From: Escherichia coli
GTDB lineage: Bacteria; Pseudomonadota; Gammaproteobacteria; Enterobacterales; Enterobacteriaceae
Strand: one strand, 5' to 3'
DNA: 64,000 nt
Assembly (NCBI RefSeq): GCF_003334765.1
Contig: NZ_QOWT01000008.1
The position numbers and the translations under genes are program-made. Within the stretch, counting starts at the first letter, position 1, and each line of letters starts with the position of its first letter. Below the pieces are notes generated by a model, which had not been told where the DNA came from, ran no database searches, and saw only the letters and a list, made by a program, of their open reading frames with translations. Below are positions 11,579 through 14,582 of the stretch, piece by piece.

Positions 11579-12862
11579 ATGACAGAAGCGATGAAGATTA
11601 CCCTCTCTACCCAACCTGCCGACGCGCGCTGGGGAGAAAAAGCAACTTACAGCATTAATAATGACGGCATTACCCTGCATTTGAACGGGGCAGACGATCT
11701 GGGGCTGATCCAGCGTGCGGCGCGCAAGATTGACGGTCTGGGCATCAAGCATGTTCAGTTAAGCGGTGAAGGCTGGGATGCGGATCGCTGCTGGGCATTC
11801 TGGCAAGGTTACAAAGCCCCGAAAGGCACGCGTAAAGTGGTGTGGCCGGATCTGGACGATGCCCAGCGCCAGGAACTGGATAACCGCCTGATGATCATCG
11901 ACTGGGTGCGTGACACCATCAACGCACCGGCAGAAGAATTGGGACCATCGCAACTGGCACAGCGTGCTGTTGATCTGATCAGCAACGTCGCGGGCGATCG
12001 TGTGACTTATCGGATCACCAAAGGCGAAGATCTGCGTGAGCAAGGTTATATGGGGCTGCACACAGTCGGACGCGGTTCAGAACGTTCTCCGGTATTGCTG
12101 GCGCTGGATTACAACCCAACTGGCGATAAAGAAGCGCCAGTGTACGCGTGCCTGGTAGGTAAAGGTATCACTTTTGACTCCGGCGGCTACAGCATCAAAC
12201 AGACTGCGTTTATGGACTCGATGAAGTCGGACATGGGCGGCGCGGCAACGGTTACCGGGGCGCTGGCATTTGCCATTACGCGCGGACTGAACAAGCGCGT
12301 GAAGCTGTTCCTCTGCTGTGCGGATAACCTGATTAGCGGCAATGCGTTCAAGCTGGGCGATATCATCACCTATCGCAACGGTAAAAAAGTTGAAGTGATG
12401 AACACTGATGCCGAAGGGCGTCTGGTGCTTGCCGATGGTCTGATTGATGCCAGTGCGCAGAAACCGGAAATGATCATTGATGCGGCGACCCTCACCGGGG
12501 CGGCGAAAACTGCGCTGGGTAATGATTATCACGCGCTGTTCAGTTTTGACGATGCGCTGGCCGGTCGCTTGCTGGCGAGTGCCGCGCAGGAGAACGAACC
12601 GTTCTGGCGTCTGCCGCTGGCGGAGTTCCACCGCAGCCAGCTGCCGTCTAACTTTGCCGAACTGAACAATACCGGAAGCGCGGCGTATCCGGCAGGCGCG
12701 AGCACGGCGGCGGGCTTCCTGTCGCACTTTGTTGAGAACTATCAGCAAGGCTGGCTGCATATCGACTGCTCGGCGACTTACCGTAAAGCGCCGGTTGAAC
12801 AGTGGTCTGCGGGCGCTACGGGACTTGGTGTGCGCACGATAGCTAATCTGTTAACGGCGTAA
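11579..12862 (+). CDS. pepB: peptidase B (M17 aminopeptidase)
   Basis: ORF track 11492..12862; start at [10 protein letters not shown] (427 aa); NTDAEGRL motif. Confidence 0.9.
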
Positions 12863-12870
12863 ACTAATAT

Positions 12871-12968
<98 letters not shown>

Positions 12969-13003: not shown

Positions 13004-13780
13004 ATGTCCGAAACAAAAAACGAACTTGAAGACCTGCTGGAAAAAGCAGCAACTGAACCGGCGCACCGCCCGGCCTTTTTCCGTACTCTACTGGAATCCA
13101 CCGTCTGGGTGCCTGGTACGGCGGCGCAGGGCGAGGCTGTGGTTGAAGATAGCGCGCTTGATTTACAGCACTGGGAAAAAGAAGACGGCACCAGCGTCAT
13201 TCCTTTTTTCACCTCGTTAGAAGCACTTCAACAGGCGGTTGAAGACGAACAGGCATTTGTCGTAATGCCCGTTCGCACGCTGTTTGAGATGACACTTGGC
13301 GAAACGCTCTTCCTTAATGCCAAACTGCCAACCGGTAAAGAATTTATGCCGCGTGAAATCAGTTTGTTGATTGGTGAAGAGGGAAATCCGCTGAGCAGCC
13401 AGGAAATCCTGGAAGGCGGTGAATCGCTGATATTATCGGAAGTCGCAGAGCCGCCAGCACAAATGATTGATTCACTCACCACCTTATTTAAAACCATTAA
13501 GCCGGTGAAGCGTGCTTTTATTTGTTCAATTAAAGAGAACGAAGAGGCACAGCCTAATTTACTTATTGGCATTGAAGCCGATGGTGATATCGAAGAAATT
13601 ATTCAGGCGACGGGAAGTGTAGCGACCGATACATTACCTGGCGATGAACCAATCGATATTTGTCAGGTGAAAAAAGGGGAAAAAGGAATTAGCCACTTTA
13701 TTACCGAACATATTGCGCCATTCTATGAACGTCGCTGGGGTGGTTTTTTGCGTGACTTTAAACAGAATCGGATAATCTAA
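13004..13780 (+). CDS. sseB: SseB family protein
   Basis: ORF track 12995..13780 (GTG); ATG at 13004 gives 258 aa. Confidence 0.85.
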   Translation: MSETKNELEDLLEKAATEPAHRPAFFRTLLESTVWVPGTAAQGEAVVEDSALDLQHWEKEDGTSVIPFFTSLEALQQAVEDEQAFVVMPVRTLFEMTLGETLFLNAKLPTGKEFMPREISLLIGEEGNPLSSQEILEGGESLILSEVAEPPAQMIDSLTTLFKTIKPVKRAFICSIKENEEAQPNLLIGIEADGDIEEIIQATGSVATDTLPGDEPIDICQVKKGEKGISHFITEHIAPFYERRWGGFLRDFKQNRII

Positions 13781-13802
13781 AATATGCCGCCCAAAGGGCG
13801 GC
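13779..13802 (-). terminator. intrinsic terminator hairpin (gccgccc-aaa-gggcggc) with U-run on the minus strand; ends the leftward transcript and abuts the sseB stop
   Basis: perfect 7-bp GC stem 13786-13802 followed on the minus strand by AUAUUUU. Confidence 0.45.
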
Positions 13803-13960
13803 ATTCGGGCTTACTTGCTGCTCTGAAGGTTGTTAACCACCAGTAAATTGTCGCCGGAGAGACTCCGGTTATTATTTACCTCGGTTAACAGCGCACCAGA
13901 AACAATAAGTACGATACAAAAGCACCGTATCTTCATTGTGCGGTCCATGCGAAGACCGCA

Positions 13961-14035
13961 TCACGACAGCACCACTGGCGATATTGCCGCGATAGCAAGC
14001 GCTGTGAAACACCTGCATTTACGGCCACGGAACAT
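13961..14035 (-). CDS. candidate small ORF (24 aa, MFRGRKCRCFTALAIAAISPVVLS) with basic N-terminus and hydrophobic tail; hypothetical
   Basis: ATG preceded by AGGAAAGG Shine-Dalgarno; lies ~45 nt downstream of a predicted leftward promoter (-10 TATTAT, 14088-14093); stop overlaps the ATG of a second mini-ORF (TGATG). Confidence 0.25.
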   Translation of the reverse strand: MFRGRKCRCFTALAIAAISPVVLS

Positions 14036-14063
14036 CCTTTCCTAAAGCCAGCGCCCGTTTGCG

Positions 14064-14258
14064 AGACGGCGGAAAGGGCCGCAGTGGATAATACACTAAC
14101 AGAACAATAATAACTCTCTTTTGCTTGACAAAAAGAGAGTTACTGGCGAGTATTGTCTCCGCTGAGACGCGCTTGCATTACTACGGTAATACAACCTGCT
14201 GGAAAGGCCGCGAACCGGACCAGCAACAAAAAACCGCCTGATTTTGGCGGTTTTTTGT
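14064..14258. repeat. intergenic module copy 1: promoter -10, AT-rich 10-bp perfect palindrome, conserved core, GC hairpin terminator
   Basis: direct repeat of 14388-14582 with identical blocks (acggcggaaagggcc; ttttgcttgacaaaaagagagttactgg; aacctgctggaaaggccgcgaacc) and a diverged centre. Confidence 0.7.
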
Positions 14259-14402
14259 TTTTTAAAGGAAAGTGAATTTACATGTTTAAGTAATATCTTT
14301 TACCGGTTAGAATTTTTAATTTTGAGCAGGATTTGTTTATATTTGTCTGAATTCGGACTAATAAGCCAGGTTATTTTATTACCGAACACGGCGGAAAGGG
14401 CC
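14099..14402 (-). ncRNA. ryfA: RyfA-like small RNA (~304 nt)
   Basis: sigma70 -10 TATTAT at 14410-14415 (minus) places the TSS at 14402; transcript ends after the palindrome actctcttttgcttgacaaaaagagagt plus U-rich tail near 14099; position between sseA and sseB matches my recollection of E. coli ryfA. Confidence 0.5.
14228..14258. terminator. bidirectional GC hairpin (ccgcc-tgatttt-ggcgg) flanked by A-run and T-run, internal to ryfA
   Basis: aaaaaaccgcctgattttggcggttttttg. Confidence 0.5.
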
Positions 14403-14582
14403 GGTGTCGATAATACGCTAAATAAACAATAATTACTCTCTTTTGCTTGACAAAAAGAGAGTTACTGGTGAGTATTGTTTTGCTGTGAAGCACCTGCGTT
14501 GCTCATGTAACACAAGTCAACCTGCTGGAAAGGCCGCGAACCAGACTAGCAATAAAAAACCGCCAAATTCGGCGGTTTTTTA
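14388..14582. repeat. intergenic module copy 2 (sseA 3' region), paralogous to 14064-14258
   Basis: same block structure as copy 1; hairpin stems conserved while loops differ. Confidence 0.7.
14554..14582. terminator. bidirectional intrinsic terminator downstream of sseA
   Basis: aaaaaaccgccaaattcggcggtttttt; stem ccgcc/ggcgg with U-runs on both strands. Confidence 0.6.

Follow-up and report, generated by a model that had tools for sequence, protein, structure and literature searches.

A 24-codon reading frame upstream of timP in Escherichia coli is probably an incidental frame within the structured leader of a known type I toxin mRNA

Introduction

The closest described counterpart of the locus analyzed here is timP/timR of Salmonella enterica, an orthologous locus situated between sseB and sseA (Andresen 2020, PMC7667032; PNAS 2024, PMC11228461; NAR 2026, PMC13000454). 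Overexpression of Salmonella TimP is toxic and the sRNA relieves this toxicity, and RNAcode applied to the Rfam alignment identified timP, from +145 to +261, as the conserved ORF (PMC7667032). So far, TimP toxicity has been demonstrated with the Salmonella protein rather than that of E. coli (PMC13188913). As experiments in Salmonella have shown, the primary timP mRNA folds into four stem-loops (SL1-SL4), leaving the timP Shine-Dalgarno (SD) sequence locked in SL4. The inactive fold is characterized by pairing between sites 1 and 2 of the RNA. In the active one, a pseudoknot between SL1 and SL3 is formed by sites 1-3 and site 2 pairs with site 4; SL4 is thereby opened and the timP SD freed, so that TimP is translated. 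TimR blocks translation by binding SL2 of the active form.

Other toxin and replication systems share parts of this architecture. In tisB/istR-1, as in timP/timR, the antitoxin binds far upstream of a sequestered ribosome binding site (RBS), and 30S recruitment requires a 5' pseudoknot (PMC11228461); unlike tisB, timP does not depend on ribonucleolytic processing, the primary transcript being activated by a structural switch. Likewise, in the hok/mok/sok system and in CopA/tap/repA of plasmid R1, the RBS of a structured toxin or rep mRNA is occluded, an ORF lies upstream, and the antisense RNA binds ahead of the regulated RBS. However, their upstream ORFs are conserved and required, and the requirements of timP translation are provided for by RNA-RNA pairing, unlike leader-ORF coupling of the mok/tap type. 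A putative uORF has been considered in the Salmonella timP leader by the Holmqvist group, with its AUG at +53-55 and its stop at +77-79; it was dismissed as not conserved (PMC11228461). Besides, the RyfA sRNA of UPEC, APEC and Shigella (PMC8205139, PMC13188913) is the same transcript as the timP mRNA, and its phenotypes have been ascribed to the RNA. In CFT073, TimP-null alleles complemented a ryfA deletion, and the ryfA phenotypes of UPEC were independent of the TimP ORF.

In this work, we analyzed a stretch of 64,000 nt of an E. coli genome (hereafter the window), in which a first-pass annotation had flagged a 24-codon ORF with a strong SD in a RyfA-like transcript as a possible small membrane or toxin-like peptide.

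Results

The timP/timR locus in the window

The flagged ORF lies in a region that matches the Rfam family RF00126 (ryfA) with 314.9 bits, against a gathering score of 80, over model positions 1-296 of 296. The leader is identical to that of E. coli K-12 over the 155 nt compared, and the locus is present in 5,426 of 5,426 complete E. coli genomes. The K-12 MG1655 RefSeq annotation places ryfA (b4440) at 14082-13779, timP (b4812) at 13936-13811 and timR (b4811) at 14482-14581 (+). These matching coordinates bear out the statement in the first-pass annotation that the Salmonella ryfA locus had been reinterpreted as a toxin mRNA, timP, repressed by the sRNA timR, and show that it applies here. The transcription start, at about 14080, was deduced from the Salmonella numbering (timP AUG = +145, PMC7667032) and the gap-free alignment of both 5'UTRs. 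The features of the module are the following:

13779..14082, minus strand: ryfA/timP mRNA, full-length match to Rfam RF00126, start placed at about 14080
13811..13936, minus strand: timP coding sequence, 41 aa, MKIRCFCIVLIVSGALLTEVNNNRSLSGDNLLVVNNLQSSK (RefSeq; NF040796; K-12 b4812; TIMP_ECOLI)
13784..13804, minus strand: intrinsic terminator of the timP mRNA, a T run after a 9-bp stem of which 7 pairs are G-C; it is the 3' hairpin of the Rfam model
14482..14581, plus strand: timR (K-12 b4811), antitoxin sRNA, coordinates mapped from K-12

The annotated toxin ORF at 13811-13936 opens with MKIRCFCIVLIVSGALL, and its 41-aa product matches the NCBIfam family NF040796 (toxic_TimP) with 86.8 bits (cutoff 45) over profile positions 1-40 of 40. 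In contrast, neither the flagged 24-aa peptide nor the overlapping 29-, 31- and 48-aa ORFs matched any NCBIfam family, even at E<=10. Both components of a type I module are in place: timP is a small hydrophobic toxin ORF conserved as a protein, and timR, which has a promoter and a terminator of its own, encodes an antisense sRNA to the toxin mRNA. The locus is therefore the known timP/timR type I toxin-antitoxin module, and its real small toxin gene is timP, already annotated; the suggestion that the toxin is the flagged ORF picked the wrong ORF, TimP being the next ORF downstream in frame.

In the comparison with Salmonella, the 5'UTRs align without gaps, SL1-SL4 and sites 1-4 are kept, TimR is likewise a divergently encoded sRNA complementary to SL2, and the Salmonella leader too has the upstream AUG, at +46, and a 24-codon frame. 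The differences are found in TimP, which has 41 aa in E. coli and 38 in Salmonella with a divergent C-terminal half, and in a tandem duplication of 322-326 nt in the K-12-type locus, which brings with it a second TimR-like gene and a putative IS128 remnant.

The 24-codon reading frame

The flagged ORF occupies the following position, as given by the ORF listing:

13961..14035, minus strand: flagged 24-codon upstream ORF, ATG start, MFRGRKCRCFTALAIAAISPVVLS; +46 to +120 of the timP 5'UTR, with its TGA inside the 3' arm of SL3

Its description in the first-pass annotation was accurate. The ORF is exactly where it was read, preceded by the SD-like stretch UUUAGGAAAGGAUG at 14046-14033; the translation of 13961-14044 (-), a stop followed by ERMFRG..., confirms the in-frame TAG three codons upstream of the ATG, which blocks any extension; and the TGA (13963-13961) does share one base with the ATG of a 29-aa frame, MRSSHGPHNEDTVLLYRTYCFWCAVNRGK, this ATG being an internal start within a 48-aa ORF (13872..14018). 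Counted from the start at about 14080, the flagged AUG is at +46; in MG1655 it corresponds to 2653902-2653904, and the timP AUG to 2654001. The ORF is in the same frame as timP, 99 nt apart, with the TGA and eight codons between them.

These features are not beyond chance expectation, and an ORF of this kind is not unusual. When the 302-nt transcript was shuffled with its dinucleotides preserved, an ATG ORF of 24 codons or more appeared in 62% of the shuffles, and in 9% such an ORF had an SD-like 4-mer no more than 16 nt upstream. The spacing between SD and AUG for the +46 start is moreover poor (0-4 nt), and the same SD suits the codon at +53 better. The N-terminus of the encoded peptide is basic; after it come 16 uncharged residues, a proline among them, against about 19 or more for a membrane-spanning segment. 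The uncharged run of TimP itself has 14 residues and acts as a signal-peptide-like segment. The best 15-aa hydropathy window is 2.29 for the flagged peptide and 2.48 for TimP. The exact 24-aa peptide is absent from a collection of 15 billion proteins, which is uninformative because gene callers skip ORFs so short. A literature search found no ribosome-profiling or initiation-site evidence for ryfA, either way.

The +46 ORF is distinct from the putative uORF of Salmonella (+53 to +79; PMC11228461). Both lie in the same leader, share the SD-like sequence and overlap the TimR site, but the latter starts 7 nt downstream and in another frame. The counterpart of the Salmonella +53 AUG in the window is a GTG at 14028. 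It opens a 31-codon frame, at 13933-14028 (-), the positional ortholog of the +53 uORF, whose TGA overlaps the timP ATG (AATGA). Its start is ATG in some relatives and its stops vary in other genera.

Comparative analysis of coding potential

We aligned 28 homologous leaders from Escherichia (several alleles and species), Salmonella, Citrobacter, Superficieibacter, Yersinia, Rahnella, Erwinia, Kalamiella and three metagenomic contigs. A contig scan with GCGGTCNNNGCANNGACCGCAC returned at least 120 loci, mostly chance hairpins in GC-rich genomes, with 17 usable Enterobacterales loci; further genera were added through TimP protein searches and the contigs encoding the proteins found. The ATG of timP is present in 28/28 homologs. 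The triplet at +46 is ATG in 14 of them, ATA or ATT in 5 and AGT, ACA or AAT in 6, with a deletion of the region in the other 3; the start is thereby missing in 11 of the 25 full-length leaders, all 25 of which have an intact timP. The +46 AUG is carried by E. coli K-12, Salmonella, C. freundii, Superficieibacter, Rahnella and Kalamiella, and is absent from Yersinia, Erwinia and Citrobacter MGH106.

The length of the frame is no better kept. Codon 6 is a TAG in the L002-type allele of E. coli and in E. whittamii, and Erwinia CGal63 has a 1-nt deletion in the frame. The truncated, 5-codon L002-type allele is the commonest in E. coli: 2,794 of 5,426 genomes have it within one mismatch, versus 1,661 with the window allele and 173 with a third one. 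The missing start in 11/25 leaders and the truncation in the majority allele argue against a conserved regulatory role of the ORF. Its TGA is kept in 23/25 full-length leaders, but it sits within the SL3 stem; the exceptions are Kalamiella (substitution) and Erwinia CGal63 (frameshift).

The substitution pattern gave no indication of selection at the protein level either. The pooled pN/pS over 18 non-redundant sequences was 0.94 in the flagged frame and 0.73 and 0.81 in the other frames (0.73 for the frame of the 31-codon GTG ORF), whereas timP showed 0.25-0.33 in its true frame and 0.8-1.2 off-frame. Column entropy by codon position was 0.65/0.58/0.51 in the flagged ORF, the third position being the lowest, versus 0.52/0.28/0.88 in timP, the third position being the highest. 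The open state of the frame (23/25 homologs; 20/22 distinct) was considered as coding evidence and rejected: independent columns predict a stop in 10% and 9% were seen, so that the lack of stops reflects nucleotide conservation and not selection against stops. Altogether, the flagged ORF has no protein-level coding signature across the 28 homologs. The conservation of the reading frame and the synonymous bias, proposed in the first-pass annotation as a check, thus turned out negative, with start and length not kept, a pN/pS of 0.94 and the indel of Erwinia CGal63. The second mini-ORF (the 29-aa frame) lies in an off-frame of timP with a pN/pS of ~1.2; Yersinia, Rahnella and Erwinia have AAG in place of its ATG.

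RNA structure of the leader

The elements of the timP RNA switch fall on the flagged ORF and its surroundings as follows:

14037..14042, minus strand: GGAAAG, the "Shine-Dalgarno" of the flagged ORF, which is the 3' arm of the SL1 basal stem (partner CCUUUC at 14071-14076)
14022..14027, minus strand: site 2 of the timP RNA switch (C57, C58 and G59 of Salmonella), in codons 4-5 (GGC CGU) of the flagged frame; mapped from PMC13000454 by alignment
13996..14015, minus strand: SL2, the TimR-binding stem-loop (TimR duplex; PMC11228461), about codons 7-14
13960..13993, minus strand: SL3, its loop, GCC (13979-13977), being pseudoknot site 3; spans codons 15-24 and the stop
13940..13959, minus strand: SL4, which sequesters the timP SD (PMC11228461), directly after the flagged TGA

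The site 3 residues, G102 and C103, were also mapped from PMC13000454, through the gap-free alignment. When the Rfam consensus structure was scored on an alignment of 23 sequences, standard pairs were found in 95.9% of the cells, compared with 39-47% when the partners were slid by 1-3 columns; eight pairs had changed on both sides, and the covariation score exceeded that of 500/500 shuffles. The pairing of GGAAAG with CCUUUC is kept in 97.8% of the cells across the 23 homologs, with G-C, G-U and A-U variation. What had been taken for a gene signal is hence the 3' arm of a conserved stem. Helix 4, in SL2, is paired in 97.5% of the cells with one pair changed on both sides; helix 5, in SL3, has five such pairs; and helix 6, in SL4, is paired in 100% of the cells. 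The compensatory pairs, together with the lack of a protein signature, explain the conservation of the region as RNA structure: the leader evolves as RNA, not as protein.

The ViennaRNA minimum-free-energy folds of the full mRNA did not contain SL1, and comparative pairing was used instead. The probability of being unpaired in thermodynamic folds was 0.01 for the timP SD, 0.29-0.42 for the SD-like stretch of the flagged ORF and 0.7-0.9 for the +46 AUG.

The published genetics of the Salmonella leader fits this RNA reading. The substitution C57G abolishes timP translation and a distant compensatory mutation in site 4 rescues it (PMC13000454); read in the flagged frame, C57G is synonymous (GGC to GGG). 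The defect of M2' (G102C+C103G in SL3), a pseudoknot mutant, is compensated by M2 (PMC13000454), which sits in SL1, outside the flagged ORF. Deletion of SL2 leaves timP translation unaffected (PMC11228461). Mutation of the timP start codon alone ends the toxicity of the overexpressed transcript (PMC7667032), and in this transcript the 24-codon homolog of the flagged ORF, MTHGRKRRHAVVLAITALSPAVLP, is intact. The published start-codon knockout M1 (AUG to AAG) had no effect on timP translation and hit the +53 AUG, which is in a frame other than that of +46 (PMC11228461); the +46 ORF is neither mentioned nor mutated in the timP papers considered (PMC7667032, PMC11228461, PMC13000454), and the text of PMC13000454 describes no FASTBAC-Seq pattern in which function is lost with all substitutions that destroy the AUG at 46-48 but kept with those that leave a start codon.

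Discussion

These results point to the flagged ORF being an incidental reading frame within the leader of a known type I toxin-antitoxin module, to which we assign a probability of about 0.86; its gene-like features would be RNA elements of the structured timP 5' leader. From the conservation of sequence and structure we infer that the E. coli leader works like that of Salmonella, and the product of the switch would be TimP, a 41-aa, signal-peptide-like inner-membrane toxin whose toxicity is known from the Salmonella protein only.

A different view would be that the +46 ORF serves as a regulatory uORF, translated in lineages such as K-12-type E. coli and Salmonella where its AUG is kept. Ribosomes passing through SL2 and SL3 would then disrupt the pseudoknot and dislodge TimR; SL4 could be opened by termination at the TGA, which precedes it by one base, and timP initiation 24 nt downstream could be coupled to this, as in hok/mok. 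The layout of the leader lends itself to this, since the frame overlaps the TimR site and its stop is immediately 5' of SL4; initiation at +46 is conceivable, as the AUG, kept in 14/25 full-length leaders, is predicted to be largely unpaired, although the 0-4 nt spacing of the SD favours the +53 codon. Such a role would not need a conserved peptide, so that pN/pS does not bear on it, and the knockout in the literature concerned the +53 AUG only. A leader ORF of the mok or tap type would, however, keep its start and stop wherever the regulated gene is found, and the +46 ORF varies in start and length: it has no start codon in Yersinia, Erwinia and Citrobacter MGH106 and only 5 codons are left of it in the commonest E. 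coli allele, in which timP and TimR are both intact. Moreover, deletion of SL2 does not change timP translation, and compensatory RNA mutations fully explain the need for SL1, SL3 and site 2 in Salmonella. We consider this kind of regulation unlikely. A narrower proposal, in which the +46 ORF is a lineage-specific uORF that remodels the SL2/SL3 switch or is coupled into SL4, or else yields a peptide behind some of the 'RNA-only' phenotypes of RyfA in UPEC, seems to us distinctly improbable.

That the 24-aa peptide itself might be a small membrane-active or toxic protein is suggested by its basic N-terminus and 16-residue uncharged stretch, by a hydropathy (2.29) near that of TimP (2.48) and by the overlap of the ORF with the target of the antisense RNA. 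The hydrophobic run, with its proline, may nonetheless be too short to cross a membrane, the peptide shows no purifying selection (pN/pS 0.94), the frame is cut short in about half of the E. coli genomes and the start codon is missing in several genera; furthermore, the Salmonella timP start mutant is non-toxic though its 24-codon homolog is intact (PMC7667032). This makes a toxic peptide highly improbable. Read-through or loss of the TGA, giving a TimP of ~74 aa that is extended at its N-terminus and has another function, can be imagined from the change of TGA to CGA in Kalamiella and to TGG in one C. freundii protein, with continuous ORFs of 71-72 aa. These are sporadic single cases, the TGA being present in 23/25 full-length leaders, the upstream part shows no protein-level selection, and the signal peptide of TimP would be buried in such a product, so that this idea is hardly credible.

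With the incidental-frame reading preferred, the main value of the analysis is a correction: the small-protein gene of the locus is timP (13811-13936), not the flagged ORF, and both the locus and its true small protein had been described and annotated before. The leader in which the flagged sequence lies is among the best-dissected of toxin mRNAs, and it illustrates how a structured RNA can mimic a gene: the arm of a stem reads as an SD, and the frame stays open and looks hydrophobic owing to GC-rich stems. A small gap in the study of timP is the +46 AUG shared with Salmonella, as the knockout in the literature covers the +53 AUG.

Additional observations

The 5' end of timR, GCUGUGAAGCACCUGC, is complementary to SL2 of the resident timP, with a duplex energy of -39.5 kcal/mol. 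RNAduplex was run on 30-nt TimR 5' ends; long fragments gave meaningless whole-length duplexes. Two further elements lie between timP and timR:

14161..14257, plus strand: second TimR-like gene, absent from the K-12 RefSeq annotation; 3' end approximate, by homology to timR
14214..14422, minus strand: IS128 RNA (RF00125, 262.1 bits; repeat families D1 and D2)

The 5' recognition sequence of the second TimR-like gene, GCUGAGACGCGCUUGC, is a perfect complement of the SL2 of the L002-type timP (-42.6 kcal/mol); against the resident timP it reaches -32.0 kcal/mol, weaker than the distal, annotated timR. The tandem duplication, of 322-326 nt, takes in the timP promoter, the 5' half of SL1 and the TimR unit, the duplicated pairs being 14066-14156 / 14388-14478 (90% identity) and 14192-14255 / 14518-14581 (84%); the terminator-like hairpin of the TimR unit falls within repeat family D2. 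The IS128 RNA opens with the duplicated timP promoter and ~35 nt of SL1, and then diverges. Judging by these repeats, it seems to be what is left of a second timP copy that arose by tandem duplication. L002-type E. coli does not have the duplication block.

Elsewhere in the window, two sub-threshold Rfam matches were seen: one to naRNA4/CssrE at 12857-12901, between pepB and sseB, with 40.3 bits versus a threshold of 59.5 and REP-element-like, and one to V_AS5 at 11403-11527.

Among the relatives, E. marmotae (L132), C. farmeri (L126) and C. amalonaticus (L083) have the leader upstream of SL2 replaced by an antisense TimR body, the arrangement expected from recombination between the direct repeats formed by SL2 and the TimR recognition sequence. 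Such a recombination would remove the timP promoter, SL1 and site 2; the genes of the three loci are still annotated as TimP. In Kalamiella (L127, 1102-1320) and in a C. freundii protein (P0097), the leader frame is fused to TimP, giving 71-72 aa. Finally, one genome of Yersinia pekkanenii carries three ryfA/timP copies on three contigs (L051, L052 and L053) with differing SL2 sequences, which suggests that this species may hold multiple paralogous timP/TimR pairs with distinct recognition codes.
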